Virus record (IMG/VR): IMGVR_UViG_2648501563_000006
Coordinates: 1 to 37,917 of that record
Length of the DNA: 37,917 nucleotides
Reading direction: 5' to 3' (one strand)
Source: a virus
The translations under genes were made by a program, and so were the position numbers. This document shows, one piece after another, positions 1,611 to 35,993 of the stretch. Under the pieces are notes generated by a model. That model was not told where the DNA came from. It worked only from the letters and a program-made list of their open reading frames with translations, and did no database searches. The number at the start of each line of letters is the position of its first letter. The first letter of the stretch is position 1.

Positions 1611-4600
1611 ATGCACCAAGACCTTTCACAACAAGCCTATTGTCAATCGGTAGGTACAAACTCGACCAATTATCCTGTCATCGATAAAAGAAATCCAACA
1701 GTAAATGACATATATTATCCTATTGGAAAGTTTTGGATTAATCAGACTGGCCCAAATCAAAGCTTATGGTATCTAAATTCGCTTTCTAATGCTACAGGTA
1801 CACTACAAGCACTTTGGATACCTATTTCTATTGAGACAGTATTAGCCACATTATCAGATACCGGCAATGCAAATATCGTCCCTCCCTCTTTAAGTAGCGC
1901 GAGTCCTCCAGATAATATCCAAATTATTGGTGGAACAGGTATAACTGTTGTAGGAAATGCGTCTAATAATAGTTTAACCATTACAAATACTTCTGGAGCT
2001 GCTGAGACACTAACCGGTAACGATGGTGTTGCCGTATCCGCTTCGGGTGGAACTATTCAAACTCTTGGTAATGTTGTTGCAAGCGGAACACATTCGGGAT
2101 ATCCTCTATACACATTCAATCCATCTAGTAATATTGAACAATGGGATATTCAAGTTGCATCTGCAATATCATCGACAAATATTGATTTAACCGGATTAGC
2201 AGCATTCAACAATACTCAGTTCGCCGTAGATTCTAATGGTTTTGTAACTTTGTACGGTGGTTCCGGTGCTCCGACATTGGGTATTACTCCAAATGCGCAT
2301 ACATCACCCGGCACTTCTCCTGTAGTACCAAATGCAAGTGGGGACATAATTATAGAAGGTGGAGCTACTTTTGCCACCGGAACACAAGCCAATCCAATAA
2401 GAACCAATTCTCTTGCTGCTAATACTATAGATCTACAAATACAATTAGCTGGTTCCCATGCAGCCACATCCACAGCAAATGATTTTGGTGTAGCTCAATT
2501 TGACTCTAATTCATTTGGTGTCACTAGTGGTTTTGTCACATTGAAAAATGGTGGCACAACAGGCGCGGTTACTTCTGTTATTGGAGATGATTCTAATCCT
2601 GTTGTACCAGCTTCTGGTGCTATTACTTTTGAAGGAACCGTTGTTGCTAATGCTACTAATGCTAAACCTGTTTATTTTCTTAAAGGCGCAACTAGCACTG
2701 AAGAACTAGAAGTTCAACTCACTACAACTAGCACATCAGGCTCGAAAAACATCAATAATGCCGGTCTAGCCTCATTTGATAGCGCTGCTTTTACAGTAGA
2801 TTCAGCTACTGGTTTCGTATCTCTAGTAGGAGGATCAGCTCCTGCGGTAGAGACATTAACCGGTAATACTGGTGGGGCAATTAGTCCATCATCCGGAAAT
2901 ATTGGAACTGTTGGAACTGGTAGTATCACAATTGTAGGATCTGGACATACTCTTACAACTGAATTAACAGGTTTAACTCAATATGATATTTTAGTTGGAC
3001 AAGGAAGTACAACGATAGGTTTAGTGGTTCCTTCGGCAACATCTGGTGTACCATTAATTTCCCAGGGATCTTCAAGCTATCCGGTATTTGGGACTGCCGT
3101 AGTAGCAGGAGGTGGTACAGGTGCCACAACTCTTACGGGTGTTTTGATCGGTAATGGAACATCTGCTATCACTGGAAATGCGATTACACAATATGATGTC
3201 TTGGTTGGGGGCGCTTCTAATGCTATTACTTCGATTTCACCAAGCACATCTGGATATGTTTTAACATCCAATGGCCCTGGAGAAAATCCGACATTTCAAG
3301 CAGTAGGAGCTTCTTCAATAACTCTTGATGGCGATTCAGGTTCAGCTAGTGGATCTACGATAACGATCAGTGGCGGAACATCAGGATTAACAACTACAGC
3401 TACAATAGCTACAATGGATATTACCGGTACTCTTAACGTATCCCACGGAGGAACGGGAGCTACTACACTTACAGGAGTGCTTACAGGTAATGGCACATCA
3501 GCTATTACAGCCAGTTCTGTCACGCAATACGATGTTTTAGTTGGTGGTGCTTCTAATGCGATTTCATCTGTAGGTCCTGGAACTTCAGGACAAGTATTGC
3601 AATCAGGAGGCGGAAGCGGTAATCCTGCTTATTCAACAGCTACATATCCTTCTAGCACGACAGTGAATCAAATACTTTATTCCTCTTCAAATAATACGAT
3701 TGCGGGTCTCGCAACAGGAAATAATGGTGTTTTAATCACTTCATCGGGTGGCGTTCCTTCTATTCTAGCAGACGGTACCACGGGTCAAGTTCTTACTGCC
3801 ACAACAGGTTCTCCTCCATCTTGGACAAGCATTAGTGTTACTGGGATCAGTACATTGGATGGTGATTCAGGTTCGTGTACCGGTTCAACCGTGACAATAT
3901 CAGGTGGAAGTACTGGTCTCACTACTTCAGCTTCATCCGCTACAATGGATCTAACAGGAACTTTAAATGTTGGACATGGCGGTACAGGTGATACTTCATT
4001 TACAGCTTATAGTGTAATTTGCGGTGGCACTACATCTACAGGTGCTTTACAAAACGTTTCTGGTCTAGGAACTTCCGGTTATGTTCTTACAAGTAATGGA
4101 CCGGGAGAGCTACCTAGTTGGCAGAACGCCGGTGATAATGCCCTCGCAATTACTATGGACGCTGGAACTTCGCCTATATCTCCTTCTTCCGGAGCTTTAG
4201 TATTTACAGGTGCACAAGTTGCTAGTGGTGTCGTAGGAACAAATGTAATACGCACAGATGGTTCTGCATCTAATACTATGACTCTTCAGATACAGAGATC
4301 AACTACAGCAGGATCATCAACTGTATCAGATAATGGAGTTTGTCATTTTAGTAGCACAGAGTTTAGCGTAGATTCTAATGGTTTTGTGACATCAAATAAT
4401 ATTACGCTTGTAGCCGGCACAGGAATAACTTTAAGTCCTAGCACCGGATTAGTTACACTCGGTGGAAGCATCACAATATCTTCAACAGGATCTGCCCTAT
4501 TTAATTACAAGAATGTGAATCATGGTTCCAGCCCTTATACAGTATTATCTACAGATCAATATTTATCTGTAGACTGTTCTGGGGGAACAGTAACATTGGA

Positions 4601-18446: not shown

Positions 18447-20600
18447 TTGTCATTTTATTTTCCGCCCTGGAATAATGCTCTAGAACCAGATCAAGGCAAT
18501 GTCCGACAATGGTTAGATAATCTTTACTCAAAATTTCAACCGATCGAGCAATCACGTTGGAATCAAAGCAACATAGATACTTTATTCTATGCTGGATCTC
18601 AGACCTTTGTAAATAGATACTTTAATTTTAGTCCTTCCACAAGCTATCAACAGTACTATTTTAATTTGATACAGCAGCCTGTTAACATGATTACAGGCTA
18701 TCAAAGACAACATAGAAAATCGATTAATTATGTTCCCTCAGAAGGTGCTGATCCCAATACAACAGATCAATATACAAGAGCAATCACACATATTTCCAAT
18801 ACAAATGGTATTCATGAACAGTTCTCAAAAGCATGTGAATTATCTGCAGTTTCCGGAATGGTTTTATTGCAACCTTATTTAGATTATAGTGGTGATGATG
18901 CTGCTCAAGGAGAACTTAAACTTAAAATATGGGAATATAATGCCTTTTTGGTAGATCCCTATTTTAGAAGTCCGGACATGTCGGATGCTCAATTTGTATG
19001 GTGTCAAGAATATATAAGTAAAAAAGAGGCTGAAAATCGCTTTCCTGATAAAACCGAAATTATTACGCCCATGGCAGGGACGCCACAAAGATATGGATCA
19101 TTTTACTTCCTTCCAGAAAATTACAATATGGCTAGGAATGATCTTATGGTTCTGTCTTATGTATGGTACAAATGGAAACGTCCTAAGAAGCGTCTTTATA
19201 GTCGTACTAGGAACCAATTCTTTGATTTTGCTGGTGGAGACCAGAACTTAGAAGCTATTCTTTACAATATTCCTGATATGGAAGAGGTTACAGTTGAGAC
19301 ACCATGTTGGAAACTAGCTGTCGTTTTAAATGATCAACTCATGTTTCAAGGTGATAATCCTCTAGGATTCGATACATGTCCATTTATTCCTGTTTACTGG
19401 AACTATGAACCACACATAAACTACTATGATTTACGCGTTAGGTCACTTGTAAGGACTATGAGAGATCCACAATTTCTCTATAACTATAAAATCATACAAA
19501 ACAACGATATAGCCTCTGCCACAATCAATGCGGGATGGATGAGAAAGGTCGGTGCAGTAGCTAATGAGGATAATTTAAAGAAAGCAGGTCAAGGATGGGA
19601 TGTAATCATAAATGAAGGTTATGAATTATCCGATTGTCAGAAGATCATTCCTAGTGCAGTTCCTGAATCCGATCTAGCGTTGGCCCAACAGATGGGAGAT
19701 CTTATTTACAGCACAGCAGGAATAAATCTGGAAAATTGGTCAGGTCAAGATGATAAACAGACATCTAGTCTTACAGTACTTCTAAAACAAGCTGCTAACT
19801 TAATGGTTTTTCAGAAGTATTTTGATCAATGGGATTATGCCTTGAAGCAATTGGGAGACAGAATGCTTCAGATTGTTTTAAATAACTGGAATGCCGAAAA
19901 AGTATCTTTGCTGATTGGCGAGGAACCAACACCACATTTCTATTCTAGAATATTTGCTAAATATCAGGTGATAGTCGAAGAAGGATTGCTGACACCAACA
20001 CAAAAGAACTTCCAAGCTCAGCAGATGATGGAAATCAACGAAAGATTCGGCCGTGAAGTCATACCACCAAGCATGATAATCAAGGATATGAATATACAAG
20101 GTAAAGCTGAAATAATGGAATTCTTGCAAAAACAAGAAGAGCAAGCAGCTGCGCAACAACAAGACATGCAAATGGTTCAGCACGCTTTAGAAGATGCTAA
20201 ACTAAAAGAACTCTACAGTAGAGCTACAAGCAATTTGGCCACAGCTAGAGAAAGACACGGTAGAGCAGAAGCAGATATTGGCCTCTTTGAAGAGCGTCTA
20301 AGCGAGATTACACGTAACAGAGCTCTTGCAACTAAAGATAAGATGGCTGCATTATCTCAATTGGTTGAAACGATAGGTAAGTTCGGCGAACTAGAAACTA
20401 AAATGAAAATGAATGACATTGAACAATTTGACGCTCGCCAAGAAGGAAAAGAAGACATAGAGAAAATTGATGCCAAAAGAACAGCTATGTCTAACGATTT
20501 CCTTAGTGAAATCATGGGTAAAACAGGTCAGCAAAATCAACAAAATCCAATGCAACAAAATCAAGAACCCATGAATCAAATGCAAGAGATGTTAAGATAA
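18447..20600 (+). CDS. portal protein (TTG start preferred; the track ORF starts at 18285)
   Basis: ggagg lies 5 nt upstream of in-frame TTG 18447. About 717 aa, placed between terL and the scaffold. Long C-terminal coiled coil and a Gln-rich tail. Confidence 0.7.
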   Translation: MSFYFPPWNNALEPDQGNVRQWLDNLYSKFQPIEQSRWNQSNIDTLFYAGSQTFVNRYFNFSPSTSYQQYYFNLIQQPVNMITGYQRQHRKSINYVPSEGADPNTTDQYTRAITHISNTNGIHEQFSKACELSAVSGMVLLQPYLDYSGDDAAQGELKLKIWEYNAFLVDPYFRSPDMSDAQFVWCQEYISKKEAENRFPDKTEIITPMAGTPQRYGSFYFLPENYNMARNDLMVLSYVWYKWKRPKKRLYSRTRNQFFDFAGGDQNLEAILYNIPDMEEVTVETPCWKLAVVLNDQLMFQGDNPLGFDTCPFIPVYWNYEPHINYYDLRVRSLVRTMRDPQFLYNYKIIQNNDIASATINAGWMRKVGAVANEDNLKKAGQGWDVIINEGYELSDCQKIIPSAVPESDLALAQQMGDLIYSTAGINLENWSGQDDKQTSSLTVLLKQAANLMVFQKYFDQWDYALKQLGDRMLQIVLNNWNAEKVSLLIGEEPTPHFYSRIFAKYQVIVEEGLLTPTQKNFQAQQMMEINERFGREVIPPSMIIKDMNIQGKAEIMEFLQKQEEQAAAQQQDMQMVQHALEDAKLKELYSRATSNLATARERHGRAEADIGLFEERLSEITRNRALATKDKMAALSQLVETIGKFGELETKMKMNDIEQFDARQEGKEDIEKIDAKRTAMSNDFLSEIMGKTGQQNQQNPMQQNQEPMNQMQEMLR

Positions 20601-20662
20601 TATCGATATGGTATTATGAAGAAAAACAAAAAAAGAAAGCCTAAAAGGCTTAAGGAGTATAT

Positions 20663-20884
20663 ATGAGCGGAAGACGTATTGATGATCACTCATCACCATG
20701 GGGCGCAAAAGGGAAAGATAGCGTGTTTCCAGACGGCCCACACAAAGTTAAGAATGAATCTAGTGCTCAGGGAGTCGGTGCAGTGATGCAGTATGAAGAT
20801 ACTACTGAAGCTATCAAATCTCAGCAAGATATGAATAAAAAGAAAGTACATGGCCACCCACAAAAGTCCGGTCATCGTAATTAG
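20663..20884 (+). CDS. small basic virion-module protein (73 aa)
   Basis: aaggag upstream; ORF track. Confidence 0.5.
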   Translation: MSGRRIDDHSSPWGAKGKDSVFPDGPHKVKNESSAQGVGAVMQYEDTTEAIKSQQDMNKKKVHGHPQKSGHRN

Positions 20885-20899
20885 ATTCTTTCTCAACGA

Positions 20900-20923
20900 G
20901 AGGGGAATCTAACCCCTCATTTT
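20900..20923 (+). terminator. rho-independent terminator-like hairpin
   Basis: GAGGGG-aatctaa-CCCCTC followed by atttt. Confidence 0.55.
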
Positions 20924-20939
20924 AATCAAAGGTTAATGT

Positions 20940-21206
20940 ATGAAATCAGGTTTTAAAGATCCTACAGCTCCAAAAGGCAATACAAAAAAGATGAAATCCA
21001 CATGGAACTTTGATCAACCCGAATATGATGAGCGTAGCGGTTGCTTCGTCAATGCTGGTTCACATTATGGTGTGGGGCATCGTCAACCTGTTGGAAAAGA
21101 AGGAAATCCTAAAGAGAAAGTAGAAACTCTCCCAACAGGAAGGGTAAAAACTATGAGAGATGACCAAGTACCACATAAGAACTTAAGAATTGTGATGGAT
21201 GAATGA
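20940..21206 (+). CDS. small basic protein (88 aa)
   Basis: ORF track. The motif AGSHYGVGHRQPVGK is echoed in the next ORF. Confidence 0.5.
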   Translation: MKSGFKDPTAPKGNTKKMKSTWNFDQPEYDERSGCFVNAGSHYGVGHRQPVGKEGNPKEKVETLPTGRVKTMRDDQVPHKNLRIVMDE

Positions 21207-21364
21207 AAGCGCCAAAAGTTGCTCATACTTCCAATTCTAAAAAGGGATTAGGTGATTTCTACGGTACCGGTTTAAAAGCCAAGATGGGAAAGATGGTTGA
21301 AGGCGTAGGTACAATGGAAGTCACACCTAAGAAAATGAAGACGCCTCCTAAATCTTTGGCTTGA
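21203..21364 (+). CDS. small basic protein (53 aa)
   Basis: ATGA-coupled start. MKAPKVAHTSNSKKGLGDFYGTGLKAKMGK..., with a motif similar to the preceding ORF. Confidence 0.4.
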   Translation: MKAPKVAHTSNSKKGLGDFYGTGLKAKMGKMVEGVGTMEVTPKKMKTPPKSLA

Positions 21365-21373
21365 TAAGAAAAG

Positions 21374-21853
21374 TTATTTACTTGTTGATTTTGAGATCTG
21401 CTCATAAATAGAAAATATTTGCGAATCTTCTAAATCATCATCTTCTCGAGCTTCAAGCATCTCCCGATTTTTTATGAAGTTATGTATACTATCACAAACT
21501 GTTTTATTCTCCGTTAACTTTCCCATTGTAAATTGACTCCACAATTCTTTAGATGGGATCATCCATATAATCTTAATAATATCTGTGCCTGGATATACTT
21601 TAAATAACATGGAATTTGTTTGCGCTTGAGGTTTAGTAAGTCTAGGTTGCCATATGAGACGTTTTGTAACACCATCATCATCTGTGCGAGTATGTGCAAA
21701 TATGTAAAATGCATGATTACCAAAAGGTCTTTTCTTGATTAAATCATCACAACATTCAGCTATCGAAAATGATTGATTCGTAAAGTAATTTAAACGGTCA
21801 TGTGCATCAAGGATATTAATTCTCACATGTGCATCAAGCATATTAATTCTCAT
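21374..21853 (-). CDS. hypothetical protein (159 aa; start uncertain because of a 5' tandem duplication)
   Basis: ORF track. Confidence 0.5.
   Translation of the reverse strand: MRINMLDAHVRINILDAHDRLNYFTNQSFSIAECCDDLIKKRPFGNHAFYIFAHTRTDDDGVTKRLIWQPRLTKPQAQTNSMLFKVYPGTDIIKIIWMIPSKELWSQFTMGKLTENKTVCDSIHNFIKNREMLEAREDDDLEDSQIFSIYEQISKSTSK
21799..21852. repeat. 27-nt tandem duplication (2 copies, 1 mismatch) at the 5' end of the - strand ORF
   Basis: catgtgcatcaaggatattaattctca / catgtgcatcaagcatattaattctca. Confidence 0.9.
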
Positions 21854-22082
21854 TGGAGTTTCCTTTTTTTAGTAAACTTATCTCTTCACACATACATCTA
21901 AGTGCTTCGGGCAAATTAAAATCATCTAAAGGGTCTGAATACTCTTCTTTAAATTCTGCATACTCTTCTTTATATTCTGCAAAAAAATCTTCTCGTAATT
22001 TTTTCTGTTGTTTAACATATGTTTCAGACTCTTTTTTAAATATGTTTGTCAGTTCATCTAAGCTATATTTTTTCTTATCCAT
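21843..22082 (-). CDS. hypothetical acidic protein (79 aa)
   Basis: ORF track. Confidence 0.45.
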   Translation of the reverse strand: MDKKKYSLDELTNIFKKESETYVKQQKKLREDFFAEYKEEYAEFKEEYSDPLDDFNLPEALRCMCEEISLLKKGNSNEN

Positions 22083-22161
22083 ATCTTGCCTTATAATAAT
22101 TATTTTAGTTAAATGAAACTGAATCCTAACCGCAGTCCAGCGTAAAGGACAAAGGATATAT

Positions 22162-22815
22162 ATGACACCCGAAGTAAATTCAAGTCAAGATGTAAAAGCA
22201 AGTGATAAAGAACTTAACTTTAGAGCACTCCAAAACAAGTATGAAAAAGCATTAGAACAAGAAAGAAATGCACGTATAGAAGCCGAAAGAGTAGCTCAGG
22301 AAGCATTGAATCGAAAAAATGCAGAACATGAAGATGATGATGATTCTGAACCTTATGTAGACAAAAAAAAATTAAATAAGACTCTTGCAAAATTTGGAGA
22401 ACAAACTAAACAATTAACTCAAACAGAAATACAAAGAGCTGTGCAAATGGCTCGTGAGCAAGAAAAACAAGAATCATGGATTGAAAATAACCCTGATTTT
22501 TACGACACCCTACAAGAACATGCTGATAAACTCGTAAAAAAAACCCCCCAATTAGCTAAAACAATTTTACAAATGCCTGATAACTTTGAGAGACAAAAGT
22601 TAGTGTATCTTAACATTAAAGAGTTAGGTCTCGATAAGCCTGAGACTAAACAACAATCGATTCAAGAAAAAGTAGATGCTAATCGTAGATCTCCTTATTA
22701 TCAACCTTCAGGTGTAGCTACAGCACCATATGCTCAAGTAGGTGACTTTAGTCAATCAGGTCAAAAAAACGCTTACCAAAAAATGCAAGAACTCAAAAAA
22801 CAACTCAGAATATAA
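22162..22815 (+). CDS. scaffolding protein candidate
   Basis: Highly charged, helical/coiled-coil-like 217-aa ORF directly upstream of the capsid gene. Confidence 0.55.
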   Translation: MTPEVNSSQDVKASDKELNFRALQNKYEKALEQERNARIEAERVAQEALNRKNAEHEDDDDSEPYVDKKKLNKTLAKFGEQTKQLTQTEIQRAVQMAREQEKQESWIENNPDFYDTLQEHADKLVKKTPQLAKTILQMPDNFERQKLVYLNIKELGLDKPETKQQSIQEKVDANRRSPYYQPSGVATAPYAQVGDFSQSGQKNAYQKMQELKKQLRI

Positions 22816-22835
22816 TCACAGCCCTCCAAGGTTGG

Positions 22836-22856
22836 GGGCTTCTCCCGAAGCCCTTT
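22836..22856 (+). terminator. terminator-like hairpin after the scaffold gene
   Basis: GGGCTTC-tccc-GAAGCCC followed by ttt. Confidence 0.5.
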
Positions 22857-22857
22857 C

Positions 22858-22876
22858 ATGTAAAACGGCTTTACAT
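22858..22876 (+). promoter_or_regulatory. conserved hairpin ATGTAAA-acggc-TTTACAT, copy 1
   Basis: 19-nt exact repeat of 28857-28875. Confidence 0.5.
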
Positions 22877-22885
22877 TAGGAAGAT

Positions 22886-23029
22886 ATGTCAAAAAAAACA
22901 GAATTTAATTTTAGTAAAAAATTTAAATTAGAATATGTTCCGTTCGACGCAGAAATAAATACAGCTCATCGCATGAAACTTTGGTTTGAATATTGGATTT
23001 TGTCTCTTCTTGAAAACTATAAAAAGTGA
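22886..23029 (+). CDS. small ORF (47 aa), uncertain
   Basis: agga upstream. MSKKTEFNFSKKFKLEYVPFDAEINTAHRMKLWFEYWILSLLENYKK. Confidence 0.25.
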   Translation: MSKKTEFNFSKKFKLEYVPFDAEINTAHRMKLWFEYWILSLLENYKK

Positions 23030-23226
23030 GCAAGTTTATAAAAGAATATGAAGATGTTGACAATATATTATGGAATAATATTAAATTAAATTACGCTAGT
23101 CCGGCGTCAAGGATATTCGCGTTAGTGTGCTATCGCAAGCACTTTCTTACGATGTGATCGAAAACGAACGTATGTTAAGCTCGTTCACTGATCATCATAT
23201 CATATTAACCTCAATATGAGGTTTAC

Positions 23227-23457
23227 ATGTCTATTACTACTACAGGGAATTTAGGCCCTCTTATACTCCAGTCGCTCGCGCCTGCCATGTTATACGTGCC
23301 TACCCCTACTATGAACTATATTACCGTCTGCGATAAGGTCTCCATGCCTGCTAACGGCGGTACTACATGCAGATTTATGAGGCCAAGAGCCTTACAGCCC
23401 CCTACGATTCAATTGGGCAATGCCGGTATTGATCCCCCAGCCCAAGTTCCTCAGCGT
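23227..23457 (+). CDS. capsid exon 1 (77 codons)
   Basis: ATG follows gaggtttac. The exon ends CAGCGU, which pairs with the intron guide GCGCUG. Confidence 0.8.
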
Positions 23458-26400
23458 AAACGAGTTGCGCTGAATAAATCTTCGATAATTGACTTGGAAC
23501 TCCTCGCTGCTTAGCAGACGGAAGACAAGGCGCAAGCAGGGAAACCGTGCAGCGTGAACGACCAAATTCGAAGACCTAGAAATAGGATGCGATGGCCTGA
23601 ACATTATGGAAACATAATGAGGAAGAGCGAAATATCTTCCCGCCTCTTAATGAGGTCAAAAAAGTAACAGTATGGACATAATTGATGCCCAAATGGCGTT
23701 TTTCGGAACAGGTGAAGAAGTTTACTCGTATTTATTAGCTGCATAATTAACTTGATCTTTATATATAACCCATGTTAAAATCCTTGGAAAAAGGAGGATA
23801 ATATGGAAAGAAGTAAGGAAGAATTAATGTACTCATACGCTGCTGGAGCAATCGATGGAGATGGAGCAATTTATCTTGTTAAGGAAATTAGGTTATATAT
23901 TCCTTTTGTCCAGCTTGCAAAAAAATTTGGCATTTTAATTTCATCATTTAAAAATGATTTTGGTGGAATAGTGGGATCTATCAAACCTAGATTACCTCAC
24001 CATGCGCCATTACATTATTGGAGATTGAAAGGAGCTGAAAACTGTAAAGAATTCCTTGGGAATGTTTCACAATTTTTGGTTTACAAAAAAGAAAGGGCAG
24101 AAATTTTATTAGATTACATTGATAAAAATCCATTTGTAAGAGGAAAAACTCTAACTCAAGATCAGATGATTGAGAGAGAAAAGTATCATGTGAAAATAGC
24201 GTCATTGAATGATGAAGCTTATCTTCAAAATATTTCAATGGTTTCAAAAACATATGTTAACAACGAAGATCCAGCTTTTTGGGCATATGTCGCTGGCATA
24301 ATGGATACTGACGGATCTTTTTCTGTAAAGAGACAGAAAGGACATTCCGAAACAAAAAATCTTAGGTATATCCCCTGTATTCAAATATCAATGGCTTCTT
24401 TGGATGTAATAAATCACATAAGAAGGAATTGTGTTTATGGAACCGTGTGCGTAGTAAAAAACAAAAGTTGCTCACGTGGTTTTCATTATGCATGGAGTAT
24501 AGGTAAGAAACAGGATTCATCGGAATTTATAGAAAAAATACTTCCTTATTTAAAAGAAAAAAAAGAACAAGCTTCGATTGTCTTAGAGTTTTGCAAAAAT
24601 AGTGAAAATACTAAATATTGCAAAGCAGGAATTCCTAAAGAAGAATTGGAATTTAGAGAATCGTGTTATCAAAGAATTGTGGCTTTAAATAAAAGTGGCA
24701 GCCTGTTGTGTGATTCTCAATAAGGTTAGAGAACACATAAAACTTGGCTATATGCTGGAAACTCCTAAAACTATCGGTACCAAAGTGTGAAAATCTGATA
24801 GATGTAACAATGGACAATCAGCAGGGAAGGCTCGAAAGAGAACCCTCAACGACTACACGCCAAGGGCTCTGTAACCGCAGAAGTCAAGATATAGTCTGAA
24901 CAATGGTGAGAGCCATTGAGAGAGGAATAACAAGACTCTCCGCCATTTATAAATGGTCATAAAAGTAACAGATAGTGCATTATAAATGAACAAGTGATCC
25001 TTCAAGATCAAGAGGGGGTCCTAGCATGGGTCTCCGAACGTCTGGCCGTTTCGATGAGACAAGCCGAGGATTGAGATTAAGTCCTCGATAAACCTTTGGT
25101 AATTGACTTGGAAGGCTAAGGTAAATGAAAACAGAAATGGCAATGTTACCAAACGGTAACTATGAACAAATAATAAGTCCTATTCAGCATGCATGTATTT
25201 TTGAAAATTGGTGTTGTGTTGAATATAGATGGAAAAAAGGAAAACTTCTTCTTAAAATAGAAGATGGAGATCCTTACGAAGATGGTTATAGTTCTGAAGT
25301 GAATGTAAAATATTGTCCATTTTGTGGTTATAAACCAGAATGATTTTACTATGCCGACAAGGCGCAAGCAATGTAAAGCTGTTTTACATGTGCAGCGTGA
25401 GAGACTAAACCCAGAGGCCCGAAAGGGATGCGATAGTCCGAACATTCCAACGAAAGGGAATGAGTCTAGCAGAAATGACTAGACCATGTCGAAAGACAGG
25501 GTAACAGATTGTTAATTTTGCGCGATTACATTGTTTCAGCAGCCTCTACGTTAAATGCAGGTGGCGGCTCCAACGGTAGAATTGTTGCCGTTGTAAAATC
25601 AGACCTGATTGAGGTGGAACTCCTCGCTGCGTAAGCAGACGGACAACACTGCGGAACCCGAAAGGGACCGTAAACGAGTAAGGCGGTCAGACACTCGAAA
25701 GAGTGAAGCGGTACTCTAAACTCTATGGAGACATAGAGAGGTGGCAGAAATGATCACCCGCCTAGAAATAGGTCACAAAAGTAATAGAATGGATAACCCT
25801 ACTAATCTAGGTGTGAGCGACTTTTCATTAGTTGCAACCACTCTAGATACGAACAATAAAATGAGTGTTGTTCTAAAACCTTCTCTGATTGACTTGGAGT
25901 GCCTGGCTGCTTAAGCAGAGGTTAACAAGGCGGAAGGCGTAAGCCACCGTGAGAGACTAAGTGAGAGGGACGCGAAAGCGTATGCGATAGTCCGAACCAT
26001 GACTATATATAAAATCATGGAAGTTAGCAGAAATGACTAACTCGCTCGAAAGAGTGGTAACAGAATGGCTTATAAATTTATGAGCGGTATAGAAGGGATG
26101 GATAGATTTGGTACAGGCCCTGTACGTTCTGCATATTTTATGCTTACGTCAACTGAACTACAAAGTGACTTTGATTCTTTGGTAGGTCAAGGTTTCTTAA
26201 GCCAGTGGAACTATCCGACGCCAAATGCATCTGCACTGCCTTCTGAGTATGGATCTGTGTTTAACATCAGAATCCTGACAAGCTCTGAAGCTCCAGTTGC
26301 ACGTGGAACAAGTGCTAATGGTCAAGATGTCTATTACAGTACTGTATTAGGCAAACAAGCCATTACACATATTAACCAAGATGGTTATTCAATGAATTTG

Positions 26401-26541
26401 ATATATAGAGACCCATACTACAGTGGTATGTTGGCCCAAAACGCTACTCTTGCAGTTAAGTTTGCGCAAGCGCAGGCTATTACGCAAGATACAGCCATTA
26501 GAAACATTCTAAGTACCAGACTTTCGTCTGTAAACTATTAA
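23227..26541 (+). CDS. major capsid protein gene, split: join(23227..23457, 23675..23713, 24976..25071, 25512..25577, 25792..25857, 26068..26541), 323 codons
   Basis: The conceptual splice gives ...AQVPQR|DIIDAQMAFFGTG|CIINEQVILQDQEGVLAWVSERLAVSMRQAED|LILRDYIVSAASTLNAGGGSNG|DNPTNLGVSDFSLVATTLDTNN|AYKFMSGIEGMDRFGTGPV.... It reads like an HK97-fold capsid protein (N4 gp56-like by recollection). Placed after portal and scaffold. Confidence 0.8.
23458..23674 (+). mobile_element. group I intron I-1 (217 nt, no ORF)
   Basis: P1 is CAGCGU (23452-57) with GCGCUG (23467-72) and a U:G wobble at the cleavage site. GNRA-capped hairpins. P7-like GACCA (23560-64) / UGGCC (23593-97), with one mismatch. Ends gtaacagtatG. 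Confidence 0.8.
23675..23713 (+). CDS. capsid exon 2 (13 codons)
   Basis: DIIDAQMAFFGTG, in frame between I-1 and I-2. Confidence 0.65.
23714..24975 (+). mobile_element. group I intron I-2 (1262 nt) carrying a LAGLIDADG ORF; 5' boundary tentative
   Basis: The core lies after the ORF: a CTC-GAAA-GAG hairpin, then CAACGACUACACG (P7 5' strand, 24851-55) and AAGAUAUAGUCUGAAC (P7 3' strand, 24892-96). The three 3' hairpins and the gtaacagataG end are shared with the other introns. The 3' exon cannot extend upstream of 24976 because of a TAG. Confidence 0.7.
23803..24723 (+). CDS. double-motif LAGLIDADG homing endonuclease (306 aa), intron-encoded
   Basis: aaggagg SD. Motifs YAAGAIDGDGAIYL and YVAGIMDTDGSFSV. 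Confidence 0.9.
   Translation: MERSKEELMYSYAAGAIDGDGAIYLVKEIRLYIPFVQLAKKFGILISSFKNDFGGIVGSIKPRLPHHAPLHYWRLKGAENCKEFLGNVSQFLVYKKERAEILLDYIDKNPFVRGKTLTQDQMIEREKYHVKIASLNDEAYLQNISMVSKTYVNNEDPAFWAYVAGIMDTDGSFSVKRQKGHSETKNLRYIPCIQISMASLDVINHIRRNCVYGTVCVVKNKSCSRGFHYAWSIGKKQDSSEFIEKILPYLKEKKEQASIVLEFCKNSENTKYCKAGIPKEELEFRESCYQRIVALNKSGSLLCDSQ
24976..25071 (+). CDS. capsid exon 3 (32 codons)
   Basis: CIINEQVILQDQEGVLAWVSERLAVSMRQAED. Stops occur in all frames just upstream, and the frame ends in TGA just past the splice site. Confidence 0.75.
25072..25511 (+). mobile_element. group I intron I-3 (440 nt) carrying a 72-codon ORF in a hairpin loop
   Basis: P1 is CGAGGAU (25065-71) with GUCCUCG (25081-87). 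P7 is GACUA (25403-07) / UAGUC (25434-38). P8 is CCC-GAAA-GGG. Ends gtaacagattG. Confidence 0.8.
25125..25343 (+). CDS. intron-encoded 72-aa Cys-rich protein of unknown family
   Basis: taaggtaa precedes the ATG. Ends ...VKYCPFCGYKPE (zinc-ribbon-like CxxC), with additional Cys/His upstream. No GIY-YIG, HNH or LAGLIDADG motif seen. Confidence 0.5.
   Translation: MKTEMAMLPNGNYEQIISPIQHACIFENWCCVEYRWKKGKLLLKIEDGDPYEDGYSSEVNVKYCPFCGYKPE
25512..25577 (+). CDS. capsid exon 4 (22 codons)
   Basis: LILRDYIVSAASTLNAGGGSNG; the only open frame here. Confidence 0.75.
25578..25791 (+). mobile_element. group I intron I-4 (214 nt, no ORF)
   Basis: P1 is CAACGGU (25571-77) with GCCGUUG (25587-93). Hairpins CGG-AA-CCC-GAAA-GGG-A-CCG and CACUC-GAAA-GAGUG. 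P7 is GAGUA/UACUC, compensatory relative to GACUA/UAGUC in the other copies. Ends gtaatagaatG. Confidence 0.8.
25792..25857 (+). CDS. capsid exon 5 (22 codons)
   Basis: DNPTNLGVSDFSLVATTLDTNN; the only open frame here. Confidence 0.75.
25858..26067 (+). mobile_element. group I intron I-5 (210 nt, no ORF)
   Basis: P1 is GAACAAU (25851-57) with GUUGUUC (25867-73). Hairpins CGG-AA-GGC-GUAA-GCC-A-CCG and ACGC-GAAA-GCGU. Core strands GAGAGACUAAG and GCGAUAGUCCGAAC. Ends gtaacagaatG. Confidence 0.8.
26068..26541 (+). CDS. capsid exon 6 (157 codons plus stop)
   Basis: AYKFMSGIEGMDRFGTGPVRSAYFML...GSVFNIRILTSSEAPV...VYYSTVLGKQA.... The track ORF start 26065 (ATG) is the last 3 nt of intron I-5 in my model. 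Confidence 0.8.
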   Translation, partial: AYKFMSGIEGMDRFGTGPVRSAYFMLTSTELQSDFDSLVGQGFLSQWNYPTPNASALPSEYGSVFNIRILTSSEAPVARGTSANGQDVYYSTVLGKQAITHINQDGYSMNLIYRDPYYSGMLAQNATLAVKFAQAQAITQDTAIRNILSTRLSSVNY

Positions 26542-26552
26542 GGAGGTTTATT

Positions 26553-27671
26553 ATGGCTGAATATTCTCGCTTAATGAGCGGAAGCGTTTTGTCTAATGGT
26601 GGACAAACAGCAGTGATATGCCCTTCAATACCTAACTATATCGAAATTACCAATACGACTGAGATCACAGCTAATAGCGGTGGTGTTACTCGTGCTTGGT
26701 GGATGACCGATATGGGACAAAGTGCTGCAGCCTATATTACTACTACATCGGGTACAGATGCATCTTTGTATACAACAACCAACGGTTTTACTACTATTCA
26801 AGCAGCTTTGGCGCTTCAATATGGTGCAACCGTATTTTTGGGTGCTTCTGGTGTGGTGGCAAAAACATCGCATACAGTAATTACTGTAACCACGACAGCA
26901 GCTCATGGTTTAGTAACAGGTAACTGGATTCAATTCCAAAACCTTTACCAAACATCATCTACAGGTATGCAGCAAATTGCCGGATTGCCTTTTATGGTGA
27001 CGGTAACAGATAGTACTCATTTTACTGTATATTGGGATGGTAACGAATCCAATTATACCGCATTGAGTTCCGGTGGTTTGAATACCAATGCGAGCTTTAA
27101 GCAAATACTTTATCCAGTGCTCTATGCACCAGGTAATGCTTATATTGCAGCTGTATCTACAACTACAGGTGTAACTACTGTGACAACTACTGCTCCGCAT
27201 AATTTTAAAGTAGGGCAAGAGATTGGTTTTAGAATTCCTTCAGTATGGGGACCTTCTCAATTGAATGAATTACCTGATAACACAATCCCAGGAAGTCCAC
27301 AGTATTTCTATGTAGCGACTGTGCCAACAAGCACGACATTCACATTCTTGAATGCTCCTGCTTATACTGCGTTTACATCTAATCAGACTTTTGCAAGCTT
27401 TGTGGGCTTAAAATTCCCTCAAGTTTTTGCAACCGGCGATGTAAACAGTGGTGGCTATCCTTACACAGGTTATGCATTGTATCCTTCACCAACCGTATTT
27501 AATGGTTACACTTCCAGCACAACTGTTGGTGTGAGCACTATTAATGGTCCCGGTATCCAAGGGGGATATATTAATGCTACTTGGCAGGGATTTGTGATAG
27601 GTTCAACCATTGCGGGTAGTGCAAATGACCAGATATACTGGCGCGCTTATACCCATGATTTGAATACGTAA
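26553..27671 (+). CDS. virion structural protein (372 aa); capsid decoration or head-fibre candidate
   Basis: taaggagg SD. Sits directly after the capsid gene. Two copies of the module TAAHGLVTGNWIQF... / TAPHNFKVGQEIGF.... Confidence 0.55.
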   Translation: MAEYSRLMSGSVLSNGGQTAVICPSIPNYIEITNTTEITANSGGVTRAWWMTDMGQSAAAYITTTSGTDASLYTTTNGFTTIQAALALQYGATVFLGASGVVAKTSHTVITVTTTAAHGLVTGNWIQFQNLYQTSSTGMQQIAGLPFMVTVTDSTHFTVYWDGNESNYTALSSGGLNTNASFKQILYPVLYAPGNAYIAAVSTTTGVTTVTTTAPHNFKVGQEIGFRIPSVWGPSQLNELPDNTIPGSPQYFYVATVPTSTTFTFLNAPAYTAFTSNQTFASFVGLKFPQVFATGDVNSGGYPYTGYALYPSPTVFNGYTSSTTVGVSTINGPGIQGGYINATWQGFVIGSTIAGSANDQIYWRAYTHDLNT

Positions 27672-27700
27672 TATATATTATTTATTGAATATAATATTTT

Positions 27701-27731
27701 GGCGCTTTCCTTAAAAAAGAAGGCGCCTTAA
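27701..27731 (+). terminator. terminator-like hairpin
   Basis: GGCGCTTTC-cttaaaaaa-GAAGGCGCC followed by ttaatt. Confidence 0.45.
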
Positions 27732-27831
27732 TTCAAGAAAAAACTAACAATCTTAGTTGTAATAATATTTTGAATATTGCATCTTAGGGACGGGACAAAA
27801 TGTCCCCACCCTTGTGTAATAGAGGTATAAT

Positions 27832-28257
27832 ATGGCAACACCCTACCCATTCCCTGGACCTGTTCCACCTTATACTAATCTGCCTATTGAGTCTCAATAC
27901 TATAATCCAAGCCAGTTTTTCATATCAAATGTTACATTAGGAACAACCACAACCGTAACCACGACTGAGAACATGAATTATGTCATCGGTCAATTAGTTC
28001 GATTAATTATTCCTCCGATGTTTGGATGTAGACAGTTAAATGAACAACTAGCATATGTGATTTCGATTCCAAGTGCGAATCAAGTGACATTACAATTAGA
28101 TTCTTCAAGAAATGTAAATCAATTTACATCATCATCAAATCCAACACAACCGCAGATATTGGCTGTAGGGGATATAAATCAAGGAATAATCAATAGTACA
28201 GGAAGAGTAATGCTATCTACAACTATTCCGGGAAGCTTTATAAACGTATCACCATAG
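27832..28257 (+). CDS. virion structural protein (141 aa) carrying the same beta-module
   Basis: TVTTTENMNYVIGQLVRLIIPP.FGCRQLNEQLAYVISIPSANQVTLQLD. Confidence 0.5.
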   Translation: MATPYPFPGPVPPYTNLPIESQYYNPSQFFISNVTLGTTTTVTTTENMNYVIGQLVRLIIPPMFGCRQLNEQLAYVISIPSANQVTLQLDSSRNVNQFTSSSNPTQPQILAVGDINQGIINSTGRVMLSTTIPGSFINVSP

Positions 28258-34685: not shown

Positions 34686-35993
34686 ATGGTTCAAATCATC
34701 CCGGCAAATCCAACAAAACAGTCATTTTCTCAGAAATTAGCAGGTGGTATAGGAAGAGGGTTAGAGATAGGCTCACAACTGTATGGAGAACATCAACAAA
34801 AACAATTATTAGCTCAAGAGAAACAAAGCGCCACTGATGCTATTCTACAATTGACCGGAAAAGATACATCCGGATTACCGTTGGAAATGCAAAAAGAATA
34901 TTTGTCTAAGGCACTTCAAGGTCAAAATGAACAAGCCAAACAGCAATCTAAATATCAATCTCAACTTGATTTGATGAAACAACTCGGACTCAATTTAGGT
35001 GAAGAAGAGGAAAATGAACCTACACAGGGACAGAGATTCGAAAAAAAACAACCTAAAGGCATTCTTAAACCTGAGTATGAAAATCTTGCATCTGAAAATA
35101 AACGAGCACAACCTTCAAAGCTAATTCCTGAAAATAAGATTCAAGCTATGGCATTAATTAATCCGGCTGTAGCTGACAAAATGCAAAAGCATAATGATAA
35201 TATAATGACTCAACAGAGACATGAAGAAGACATTGAACAGAAAAGATTTGAATCAGAAAGAAATTATCATACAAAAGCAACCATTGAAGCGGATAAAGAA
35301 ATTGAACAATTGCGTTCAGTAATACCTAAAAAAGAAATGGCTTTAGATTTTGCAAGAGGAGCTATAGAATCTGGAGAAATTGGAGCTTTTTCTCTTGCAA
35401 ATTTAGCTGAACGAACTGGTATTAATGAATTACAAAATGCTAAAGGTGCTCAATTAATTACAGCAGCTAAAGAAAATCTTTTATCTAATATGGGTCGAGT
35501 TAGTTCAAAAGGACAAAATCTTTGGTTTGAACAAAGATTAAATTCTATGTTTCCTAAAGTGGGTCAATCTGAAGAAGCAAATTTAACAATTCAAGAAATG
35601 TTGGATGCAGAAATCGCTTTAGATAAATTATATTTAGAAGAATATGATCGGTTAACTGAATCAGATGAAAAGAATTTTGGTTATGGAAGAAAAGATAGGG
35701 CAAAAAGAGCTCGATTAGCTATTAAACCAATGGAAAATCATGTGTTTAATCGTGCTGTATTTAGAATGAAGGAAATAGAGGAACAAGAAAAAGGATTAAG
35801 TGATATAAAAAAGAAAGTCGGTAAAAATGTTGATAAAGGAACTCCTTTAACTTTAGCAATGGCTAAATTATATTATGAAAAATATGGCGATGAAGCCGCA
35901 AAAATTGCTGAGAAAAATGGATATAAAATACCAACTTTAGAAGATTATAAATCATTTAGAGAACCTTCCCGCGAATTCCGAGAGGAGTTGTAA
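34686..35993 (+). CDS. internal virion protein candidate (435 aa, charged/coiled-coil)
   Basis: ORF track; T7-like gene order (inference). Confidence 0.5.
   Translation: MVQIIPANPTKQSFSQKLAGGIGRGLEIGSQLYGEHQQKQLLAQEKQSATDAILQLTGKDTSGLPLEMQKEYLSKALQGQNEQAKQQSKYQSQLDLMKQLGLNLGEEEENEPTQGQRFEKKQPKGILKPEYENLASENKRAQPSKLIPENKIQAMALINPAVADKMQKHNDNIMTQQRHEEDIEQKRFESERNYHTKATIEADKEIEQLRSVIPKKEMALDFARGAIESGEIGAFSLANLAERTGINELQNAKGAQLITAAKENLLSNMGRVSSKGQNLWFEQRLNSMFPKVGQSEEANLTIQEMLDAEIALDKLYLEEYDRLTESDEKNFGYGRKDRAKRARLAIKPMENHVFNRAVFRMKEIEEQEKGLSDIKKKVGKNVDKGTPLTLAMAKLYYEKYGDEAAKIAEKNGYKIPTLEDYKSFREPSREFREEL

Follow-up and report, generated by a model that had tools for sequence, protein, structure and literature searches.

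Within the window (the whole stretch of 37,917 nt analysed here, from an IMG/VR virus record), an earlier note on the sequence had singled out a locus in which the beginning and the end of a capsid-like protein are encoded far apart, and had proposed a capsid gene in six exons, with introns occupying about 70% of its length. What gene callers recognise at this locus are pieces of 95 aa and 158 aa, which raises the question of whether these fragments are parts of one gene and, if so, how the sequence between them would be removed. The evidence presented below indicates that the locus is very probably the gene for an N4-gp56 family major capsid protein (MCP) of an uncultured phage, divided into six exons by five group I introns. 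Related records bear names that point to soil, peat or groundwater as the habitat of this ~40-kb phage.

Reconstruction of the capsid gene

The earlier note had placed the cuts after an exon-terminal U and after the terminal G of each intervening sequence. These cuts keep the frame throughout, joining six exons into 972 nt that form a single ORF of 323 codons plus stop, and all five insertion points fall between codons. The exons are the following:

23227–23457, + strand: MCP exon 1, codons 1–77; uninterrupted in intron-less homologues; its 3' U pairs with the guide G
23675–23713, + strand: MCP exon 2, 39 nt, codons 78–90; exact blastn match to an intron-less homologue
24976–25071, + strand: MCP exon 3, 96 nt, codons 91–122; protein alignment and blastn
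25512–25577, + strand: MCP exon 4, 66 nt, codons 123–144; protein alignment and blastn
25792–25857, + strand: MCP exon 5, 66 nt, codons 145–166; protein alignment
26068–26541, + strand: MCP exon 6, codons 167–323 and stop; blastn match with an intron-less homologue begins at 26068

Introns account for 2343 of the 3315 nt of the locus (70.7%), in agreement with the earlier estimate. The spliced 323-aa ORF has 997 homologues, the best of which are 321–325 aa long and 86–93% identical at 99% coverage, and hundreds of capsid homologues of 321–325 aa, named N4-gp56 family MCP by JGI, are free of interruption. TIGR04387 matches the spliced protein with 75.7 bits (cut-off 60) in a single stretch, aligning residues 26–308 with profile positions 23–315 of 324, and PHROG 1357 (major head protein) yields one continuous match to residues 25–311. 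Alignment with 13 intron-less homologues reveals no gaps at any of the five junctions, as the earlier note had anticipated for contiguous capsid homologues, and the capsid-like motifs that it saw rebuilt there are borne out by the junction residues QR/DI, TG/CI, ED/LI, NG/DN and NN/AY (the slash marking the junction), which are invariant or nearly so in these homologues. The residues encoded by exon 2, DIIDAQMAFFGTG, are likewise conserved among homologues. At the nucleotide level, the blastn alignment of an intron-less homologue with the window is broken precisely at 23675/23713, 24976 and 26068; the breaks at the two edges of intron 3 (25071/25072 and 25511/25512) are ambiguous by 1 nt.

Splice-site signals

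At introns 1, 3, 4 and 5, a guide starting at intron nucleotide 10 pairs with the end of the upstream exon in a 7-bp P1 helix that closes with U.G at the predicted cleavage site. These are the four P1 helices reported in the earlier note, each of which can be extended to 7 bp. Only 33 of the 11253 U positions in the whole window show such a P1 hairpin, so that its presence at all four of these junctions is much more than chance would give. The P1 of intron 2, which was absent from the earlier four, was identified here as the pairing of AACAGGU (23707–23713) with GCCUGUU (24701–24707), the sole candidate of at least 6 bp in this 1262-nt intron. A 7-bp P1 closed by U.G, a defining trait of group I introns, is hence found in five of five introns. 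The reported GUAAYAG-NNN-G tail is also present in all five; each ends in a 3'-terminal G (omega-G), likewise a group I trait, and only the cut at that G maintains the reading frame.

A compact family of group I introns

Four of the five introns belong to a compact family, for which a family model (R1) was used to locate the cores:

23458–23674, + strand: intron 1, 217 nt, compact family; P2 and ORF both absent; ends GUAACAGUAUG
23451–57 / 23467–73, + strand: intron 1 P1, guide pairing
23473–23602, + strand: intron 1 R1 core, 116.1 bits
25072–25511, + strand: intron 3, 440 nt, compact family; P5 loop enlarged by an inserted ORF
25065–71 / 25081–87, + strand: intron 3 P1, guide pairing
25315–25443 (3' part, 50.3 bits) and 25087–25167 (5' part, 18 bits), + strand: intron 3 R1 matches
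25578–25791, + strand: intron 4, 214 nt, compact family, without ORF
25571–77 / 25587–93, + strand: intron 4 P1, guide pairing
25593–25721, + strand: intron 4 R1 core, 104 bits
25858–26067, + strand: intron 5, 210 nt, compact family, without ORF
25851–57 / 25867–73, + strand: intron 5 P1, guide pairing
25873–25997, + strand: intron 5 R1 core, 124.7 bits

Members of the family are ~210 nt long and combine a P1 loop of 9 nt with helices P3 to P8, including the P3/P7 pseudoknot, followed by GNRA-capped P9, P9.1 and P9.2 (hairpins read by eye) and the common tail; intron 3 can be aligned with the others once its ORF is removed. Pairing in the core holds in 94.7% of cells across 10 sequences, against ~40% in slid controls, with compensatory changes in 24 of 30 pairs. 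For 108 distinct members the corresponding values are 97.0% of cells against 35–50% in slid controls, with compensatory changes in 22 of 30 pairs, and none of 500 shuffles of this set reached the observed values. RNAalifold independently recovered P3–P6. Covariation thus strongly supports the core of a group I intron, P3-P4-P5-P6 plus P7-P3'-P8-P7' with its pseudoknot. The sequence of P7, of which the earlier note had picked out strands, is compatible with a putative guanosine-binding pocket: the P7 G-C pair, preceded by a bulged nucleotide, is invariant in 108/108, and the outer P7 pair switches between A-U and G-C. In IMG/VR more than 119 stretches match the family, and cultured phages also contain members of it that have escaped annotation.

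Michel and Westhof are said to have characterised subgroup IA, in 1990, by extra helices P7.1/P7.2 between P3' and P8. Both helices are absent from the compact family, in which P8 follows directly after P3', and P2 is also missing. Subgroup IA2 is the commonest group I type in phages (PMC11835236).

Nothing specific to the locus favours removal or bypass of the insertions by inteins, group II splicing, ribosomal hopping or frameshifting, and the presence of the full set of group I signatures leaves such routes a negligible probability. Inteins are ruled out by in-frame stops located 0–19 codons into every intervening sequence, insertions of 210–1262 nt greatly exceed what ribosomal hopping could bridge, and no group II intron was matched at the locus with Rfam.

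Intron 2, its endonuclease gene and the performance of RF00028

The remaining intron is a larger one, with the following features:

23714–24975, + strand: intron 2, 1262 nt, larger group I intron with P2 and an endonuclease gene in the P1 loop
24676–24918, + strand: intron 2 RF00028 match, 76.9 bits (gathering score 50)
24737–24901, + strand: intron 2 R1 match, 26.3 bits, E 9e-4
~24708–24742, + strand: intron 2 P2 hairpin, read by eye
23803–24723, + strand: intact LAGLIDADG homing endonuclease ORF, 306 aa, within intron 2 (PF00961)

The endonuclease ORF is preceded by AAGGAGG upstream of its ATG and contains two LAGLIDADG-type motifs, AGAIDGDGAI and AGIMDTDGSF, the motif near residue 15 having been seen by eye; Pfam PF00961 matches residues 164–254 with 28.1 bits (cut-off 23.1). 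R1 aligns full-length to the RF00028-matched core of intron 2, which links this intron to the compact ones.

The search with Rfam RF00028 proposed in the earlier note gave a divided answer: intron 2 alone passed the gathering threshold, and introns 1, 3, 4 and 5 gave no match even at E≤10. RF00028 also returned no matches on 13 loci rich in compact-family members, and its misses are therefore attributable to limited model sensitivity rather than being evidence against the fold. A lack of RF00028 hits, which the earlier note would have counted against the introns, is not a valid test for a family to which this model is blind.

Predicted splicing and the possible need for cofactors

With the protein restored exactly, a covarying core in four introns and an RF00028 match in the fifth, the structural reading is supported, and with it the view that all five introns would have to be removed for capsid protein to be made. 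That they do so by self-splicing is what we infer from their sequences. Each intron would fold in the late transcript and its guide pair with the last 7 exon nt; free guanosine would attack 3' of the U in the U.G pair, after which the terminal G would occupy the P7 pocket and the exons be ligated. Five such splicing events would be required for the mRNA of the 323-aa capsid protein. Ligated exon 3-4-5 junctions had no match in metagenome contigs, a null result that is uninformative because none of the strain-matching contigs found is from JGI.

Besides its group I core, intron 3 carries a candidate protein gene:

25125–25343, + strand: conserved Cys-rich ORF, 72 aa, in intron 3; 58 homologues

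Its 58 homologues are 57–100% identical, with H22, C24, C31, C64 and C67 invariant. The AF2 model of the 72-aa protein is all-beta (pLDDT 83), and no structural match for it was found in PDB or BFVD.

We regard it as unlikely, though worth weighing, that the introns are real and yet one or more of them, above all intron 1, need a protein cofactor or the core of a neighbouring intron; the LAGLIDADG protein acting as a maturase, or else the 72-aa protein, could for example be such a cofactor. The P7 of intron 1 has one A.C mismatch beside the presumed G-binding pair, at a position that is A-U in 108/108 relatives, and its autonomy is therefore uncertain. The conservation of the 72-aa ORF, which lacks a recognisable nuclease fold, and the core-less mini-introns of sister genomes described below, which imply help in trans, also speak for such dependence. 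Against it, intron 1 reaches 116 bits on the family model with its remaining helices all intact, the cores of introns 4 and 5 are complete and canonical, and self-splicing in vitro is the general rule among phage group I introns that have been characterised.

Recurrence, alleles and insertion sites in relatives

The five-intron locus is not restricted to one record. Seven contigs (L205 and L207–L212) from as many assemblies, six from ENA and one from Logan (SRR5247223), repeat the window sequence at 99.6–100% identity; L205 runs across all five introns, L207 and L208 across introns 3–5 with their flanks, and the remaining contigs contain parts of the locus. Because it was assembled independently in seven assemblies, the five-intron locus is not an artefact. 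Conserved 15–20-nt segments common to the introns could confuse de Bruijn assemblers, and variants do co-exist in one sample (L205, L206), but a chimera of intron-bearing and intron-less variants is most improbable given that contigs of different studies and assemblers (L205, L207, L208) repeat the locus base for base and that the reading frame is restored at every junction. L206, from the same sample as L205, is 99.8% identical in its flanks and lacks introns 1 and 2, revealing two alleles of the window phage with differing intron sets in a single sample.

Defective variants also exist in the population, such as L209, with a ~79-nt deletion inside the endonuclease ORF, and could suggest a dead, decaying capsid gene of a defective genome in which the insertions stay in. 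This is very unlikely for a gene whose six exons are in frame and 86–93% identical to functional-looking homologues, whose junction residues are invariant and guide helices all intact, and which recurs as the same allele at 99.6–100% identity in contigs of seven assemblies. Moreover, neither the ORF list nor profile matches revealed a second capsid gene in the window.

Across relatives, the capsid gene contains 0, 1, 2, 3, 4 or at least 5 introns at no fewer than 14 distinct sites. The sites of the window are occupied in several of them: 77/78 in L159, L203 and L204; 90/91 in L213, where the introns bear LAGLIDADG genes, and in L194, through a large insertion; 122/123 in L203 and L213; 144–146 in L159; and 166/167 in L258. 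The occupation of site 90/91 in L213 and L194 lends indirect support to the predicted cleavage of the intron-less allele by the intron 2 endonuclease. The capsid gene is a recurrent landing pad for mobile introns, and this range of sites and intron numbers, together with the two alleles of one strain in one sample, makes it naturally suited to studying how introns are gained and lost. The ORF-less introns may have spread through co-conversion with endonuclease-bearing neighbours or with the help of free-standing endonucleases.

Sister genomes additionally harbour core-less 'mini-introns' of 32–44 nt, in which the P1 and P10 guides covary and which in every case lie shortly upstream of a full intron; L206, the sister allele of the window strain, carries one. 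We tentatively raise the possibility that the capsid gene hosts a group I 'community' with division of labour, made up of endonuclease-bearing introns, ORF-less compact introns and these mini-introns. The latter, reduced to the guide (P1 with P10) and the terminal G, would be spliced by the ribozyme core of the full intron 66–90 nt downstream in the same transcript, and would be non-autonomous members of the group I class, much as MITEs are among transposons. The five-intron allele of the window would then be one state of a fast-turning system, and the core-less mini-introns, if spliced, a new kind of element.

Comparison with known systems

The remark in the earlier note that no precedent was known to it does not stand up, since a crAss-like capsid gene in five fragments has been published and sister contigs have at least five introns in the same gene. 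With intron-riddled phage capsid genes on record and sister phages equally intron-rich, the window locus is an extreme example of a known phenomenon, and not a first. The MCP gene of the crAss-like Zeta-group phage cMAG OLRF01000054 lies in five fragments, with group I intron-type domains encoded in three of the four spacers between them (Yutin et al., 2021; PMC7886860). Both are phage MCP genes in many pieces known from metagenomic sequence alone; however, the crAss-like phage is of 145–192 kb (PMC7886860), against ~40 kb and six exons here, and its introns were recognised by their endonuclease ORFs, whereas three of the five introns of the window are ORF-less and the RNA structure is supported by covariation. 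Mycobacteriophage LittleE and lactococcal phage Tuc2009 have a single capsid-gene intron each, that of LittleE containing a LAGLIDADG-like ORF and splicing efficiently (PMC3706429). They share with the window a group I-type intron in the most highly expressed late gene, and differ in having one intron per gene, with splicing confirmed by N-terminal protein sequencing and RT-PCR (PMC3706429).

The window locus is a clean and independently re-assembled case in which a small phage would depend on five splicing events for its most highly expressed late gene, and it makes it more pressing to ask how splicing can keep up with coupled translation. The introns of Staphylococcus phage Twort are usually classed as IA2, whereas the compact family of the window has neither a P2 nor space for P7.1/P7.2. 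Twort orf142 is described as containing three group I introns, against five here, for which self-splicing was shown (Landthaler and Shub, 1999, in PMC6669764); on that description, the two systems share several small group I introns in one protein-coding gene with very short exons between them. Jug (jumbo gut) phages contain numerous ORF-less group I introns, found with subgroup covariance models, of a mean ~206 nt, the same size class as the compact introns of the window, with essential genes such as terL in 2–3 fragments and splicing of 37 of 76 introns confirmed by metatranscriptome reads (PMC12880540). Jug genomes are of 360–402 kb with ~18.5 introns scattered genome-wide (PMC12880540), and five introns within one gene are not known to have been reported for them.

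The capsid genes of the present clade will be mis-called in viromes, because gene callers fragment them and RF00028 misses the compact family. Fungal mitochondrial cox1 offers a parallel, as a single gene that has gathered numerous group I introns at separate sites, some of them present in one strain and absent from another, and with LAGLIDADG cargo, as at the window locus; in contrast, the organelle genome in which cox1 resides is hardly pressed to stay compact, and maturases are needed by many of the cox1 introns.

Predicted spliced capsid gene and splice-site signals

The major capsid protein (MCP) gene lies at 23227-26541 (+), and the proposed exons and introns, with the closing GUAAYAG-NNN-G tail of each intron and the first stop codon met in the frame of the preceding exon, are as follows.

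Exon 1: 23227-23457, +
Intron 1: 217 nt, +; tail 23664-23674; first in-frame stop 23512-23514
Exon 2: 23675-23713, +
Intron 2: 1262 nt, +; tail 24965-24975; stop after 10 codons
Exon 3: 24976-25071, +
Intron 3: 440 nt, +; tail 25501-25511; UGA at its start, 25072-25074
Exon 4: 25512-25577, +
Intron 4: 214 nt, +; tail 25781-25791; first in-frame stop 25632-25634
Exon 5: 25792-25857, +
Intron 5: 210 nt, +; tail 26057-26067; first in-frame stop 25912-25914
Exon 6: 26068-26541, +

As the earlier note had proposed, the six exons (972 nt in total) join into a stop-free frame of 323 residues, and the five intervening sequences make up 70.7% of the 3315-nt locus. Homology search with this conceptual protein returned 997 homologues, the best 120 of which are 311-342 aa long (nearly all 321-326), with 84-93% identity at 96-100% query coverage, and many of these best 120 carry the JGI name "N4-gp56 family major capsid protein". 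The spliced protein matches TIGR04387 in a single stretch (75.7 bits, curated cut-off 60) and PHROG 1357 ("major head protein") over residues 25-311, and the genes around the locus encode terminase, portal and tail proteins. The predicted contiguity with intron-less homologues was borne out in an alignment with 13 of them, which has no gaps at 77/78, 90/91, 122/123, 144/145 or 166/167 and in which the residues beside all five junctions are invariant or nearly so. At the DNA level, comparison with the uninterrupted homologue L001 places exact breaks at 23675-23713, 24976 and 26068. The junctions of intron 3 (25071/25072 and 25511/25512) are ambiguous by 1 nt in this comparison, and the terminal-G rule settles them. 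Neither tblastn with the spliced protein nor megablast with 20 kb of window sequence found a cultured relative of the phage in INPHARED. The joined exon 3|4|5 junctions gave no matches in JGI metagenome contigs, a null result that is uninformative because none of the strain-matching contigs found comes from JGI.

The P1 helices described for introns 1, 3, 4 and 5 are present at the positions given in the note and can each be extended to 7 bp, with the last exon U opposite a G and the guide beginning at intron nucleotide 10. A comparable hairpin occurs at just 33 of the 11253 U positions in the whole window, so its presence at four junctions out of four is not due to chance. The GUAAYAG-NNN-G tail closes all five introns. 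It is common to the compact family formed by introns 1, 3, 4 and 5 and their relatives, to the larger intron 2, and to an intron at codons 114/115 of the related contig L206; pairing of the tail with J3/4 or J7/9, tried by eye, yielded no consistent partner.

In introns 1, 4 and 5, read in frame from exons 1, 4 and 5, the stop codon falls at intron nucleotides 55-57, in the P5 loop. With such early in-frame stops, ribosomes would be released short of most of the ribozyme core, which is consistent with what is known of the T4 introns. The stop positions may limit ribosome entry into the core, and the position shared by introns 1, 4 and 5 could be no more than a sign of shared ancestry. As explanations of the window's insertions, inteins, group II splicing and ribosomal hopping were discarded, given the in-frame stops, lengths and group I signatures of these sequences.

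A compact group I intron family missed by Rfam

The Rfam group I model (RF00028), which the earlier note had put forward as a check, detected intron 2 (24676-24918, 76.9 bits, gathering score 50); introns 1, 3, 4 and 5 went undetected even in a permissive run over 23200-26600 at E<=10. At its gathering score, RF00028 also gave no match in 13 loci holding many compact-family members, and lack of an RF00028 hit is therefore unusable as evidence against these introns.

Introns 1, 3, 4 and 5 show clear homology to one another and to single introns elsewhere in the same gene of IMG/VR relatives. A structure model was derived from ten such introns. Its P1 loop measures 8-9 nt in the introns of the window and P2 is missing; P3 leads into J3/4 (UGAUUGA), P4, an A-rich J4/5 and P5, then P6 and P6a. 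P7 carries a bulged nucleotide adjoining a G-C pair, P8 is mostly GNRA-capped and J8/7 reads AUGCGAU; downstream of the P7 3' strand the intron continues with GAAC, P9, two further hairpins and the conserved tail. Helices P3 to P6a were recovered independently by RNAalifold, with 16 of 20 pairs compensated. With the P3/P7 pseudoknot counted in, the complete model pairs 94.7% of cells across the ten sequences as compared with ~40% when partners are slid, and 24 of its 30 pairs are altered on both sides.

A DNA pattern for the family matched more than 119 IMG/VR stretches among the matches listed. A larger count, based on 127 pattern matches (108 distinct), gave 97.0% paired cells versus 35-50% with slid partners, a value reached by none of 500 shuffles. 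The P7 G-C pair is invariant in the 108 distinct sequences, and the outer P7 pair alternates between A-U and G-C. At the pair beside the invariant G-C, intron 1 carries A.C, a mismatch with no compensating change, so its splicing may depend on help.

A covariance model of the compact core (R1) scored 124.7 bits on intron 5, 116.1 bits on intron 1, 104 bits on intron 4 and 50.3 bits on intron 3, the core of which is divided by an open reading frame in the P5 loop. Intron 2 scored 26.3 bits (E 9e-4) in a full-length alignment to its RF00028-positive core, which links the compact family with a genuine group I core. R1 found no further match in the window. Since P8 comes straight after P3' and P2 is absent, the compact family does not look, from its predicted fold, like subgroup IA. 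The sequence data show the guide helices, the terminal G and a covariation-supported group I core.

Reading frames within introns 2 and 3

The sole candidate guide of intron 2 is GCCUGUU (24701-24707), whose partner AACAGGU ends exon 2. This guide lies 987 nt into the intron, immediately 5' of a P2 hairpin (read by eye) and the core, which places the 306-aa open reading frame at 23803-24723 in the P1 loop. The predicted product scores above the cut-off for Pfam LAGLIDADG_1, and the frame has two LAGLIDADG-type motifs and a strong ribosome-binding site. The protein also matches PHROG 5046 (E 6e-31) and PHROG 12980 (E 8e-14), both labelled "HNH endonuclease", apparently through a labelling error in the library. 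Contig L209, otherwise identical to the window, lacks ~79 nt within this frame (~498-505 of the contig; window 24041-24121), which suggests that part of the population carries a decaying endonuclease gene.

A 72-aa open reading frame (25125-25343, +) occupies the P5 loop of intron 3. Its 58 homologues are 68-114 aa long and 57-100% identical, and one His and four Cys never vary among them. In the related locus L213, a homologue again lies between MCP fragments, downstream of a LAGLIDADG frame. An AF2 model of it is confident (pLDDT 83) and all-beta. Neither a PDB profile search nor Foldseek against PDB and BFVD returned anything significant, Pfam and PHROG gave weak matches only, and NCBIfam gave none. 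A minimal HNH-type nuclease was sought by eye and could not be supported. The 72-aa frame is conserved intron cargo and cannot be recognised as a homing endonuclease.

Independent assemblies and allele polymorphism

The window sequence recurs at 99.6-100% identity in seven contigs from seven assemblies (L205 and L207-L212; six ENA assemblies and Logan SRR5247223). L205 covers 20131-27891, and hence all five introns, and L207-L212 cover parts of the locus. The five-intron locus is not an artefact. A further contig from the same sample as L205, L206, has flanks 99.8% identical to those of the window and a different gene interior (L206 2668-4290 compared with window 23227-25071): introns 1 and 2 are missing, introns 3-5 are kept, and A114|V115 holds a different intron, whose 309-aa LAGLIDADG gene runs on the opposite strand. 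A single strain therefore harbours alleles that differ in intron content. Despite the near-identical flanks, exon 2 of L206 shows many synonymous differences, and this pattern looks like a gene-conversion tract. The analysis also shows exact restoration of a conserved protein and presence/absence polymorphism at fixed sites.

Each intron would be removed by guanosine-initiated self-splicing from the late transcript. Homing would be driven by the LAGLIDADG enzyme, and co-conversion with the intron that bears it could extend to the neighbouring introns without open reading frames, which lie at distances of just 39 and 96 nt.

Mini-introns in sister genomes

Inspection of sister genomes revealed much smaller insertions in the capsid gene, of 32-44 nt, after the second base of codon 92 (TGCAT|), with 23 occurrences, 17 of them distinct. 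The window has none. The site is filled in L206 (2943-2986) and also in L265, L268, L269, L272-L277, L279, L282, L285, L288, L292, L297-L302, L307 and L309. Each of these mini-introns is preceded by a U and has G as its last nucleotide. All three modulo-3 length classes are represented, and removal of the insert always restores C-I/V-I-N-E. Exon GCUGCAU pairs with GUGCAGC in a P1 helix whose variable pair is A:U in 18 cases and G:C in five, the exon G being matched by an insert C, with zero mismatches. A P10 pairing joins UGAUU to 3' exon AAUCA (20 cases) or UAAUU to AAUUA (3), again with zero mismatches; chance matches of the same pattern outside capsid genes include all four base combinations. 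The P3-P9 core is absent, and a full intron, of one of several different types, lies 66-90 nt downstream of every mini-intron whose contig extends far enough. An analogous 37-nt insert occurs in L258 at 114/115 (~1723-1759, minus strand), the site of the full intron in L206.

The simplest reading of these features is that mini-introns are internally deleted introns, and they may be non-autonomous introns that use the ribozyme core of a neighbour. Ribosomal hopping over the mini-introns is disfavoured, since an exon with GUU would have unlike codons for take-off and landing, one conserved residue would be lost and the P10 covariation would be left unexplained.

Introns in relatives and other phages

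Among the 80 best IMG/VR relatives, the gene is uninterrupted in 71 and has an intron near the N-terminus in nine, at codons 22, 29/30 or 31/32 in eight of these and at 10/11 in L065. The window's own sites are shared by other relatives.

Window intron sites also occupied in related contigs
77/78: L159, L203, L204
~90: L194, L213
122/123: L203, L213
144-146: L159
166/167: L258

Additional intron sites were found at codon 21, codon 33, 69/70, 114/115, ~120, 181/182 and ~217. An intron lies inside an MCP homologue in ~35 of 119 pattern-selected loci among the matches listed, including capsid proteins just 30-50% identical. L258 (30-2550, minus strand) has five family cores, read as five full introns, within 1.8 kb of its MCP gene besides its 37-nt insertion, L237 has four family cores, and L276/L297 have at least three full introns and a mini insertion in the first 122 codons, with another intron starting at 122/123. 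L258 and L276/L297 equal or exceed the window in number of interruptions. In view of these similarly crowded genes, the window allele is extreme yet not unique.

The compact family extends to cultured phages. In Roseobacter phage CRP-118 (OR420741, ~35056-35455), an unannotated family member splits the ribonucleotide reductase gene between gp44 and gp45, both called "ribonucleotide reductase", and another is unannotated in Desulfovibrio phage 7757 (81361-81483). GTDB contigs L261-L272 are binned in MAGs that include Nitrosopumilaceae, Methanobacterium, Chlamydiia, Patescibacteria and Nitrospiraceae, and isolate and contig names of this group indicate fen, bog, palsa and groundwater samples. 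A host assignment from these matches was rejected: the MAGs span unrelated phyla, including archaea, and the phage-clade contigs in them are almost certainly binning contaminants.

Comparison with known systems

A single group I intron in a capsid gene has been described in LittleE and Tuc2009 (PMC3706429), and Twort, as cited in PMC6669764, has three introns in one gene. The MCP gene of a crAss-like Zeta phage lies in five fragments (PMC7886860), and Jug phage genomes have been described with ~18 introns of ~206 nt, their splicing proven by metatranscriptomics (PMC12880540). What the window contributes beyond these systems is one further intron, a small genome and a different phage clade, together with a structurally documented intron family undetected by Rfam. 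The mini-introns, a by-product of the analysis, may matter more than the capsid-gene case itself.
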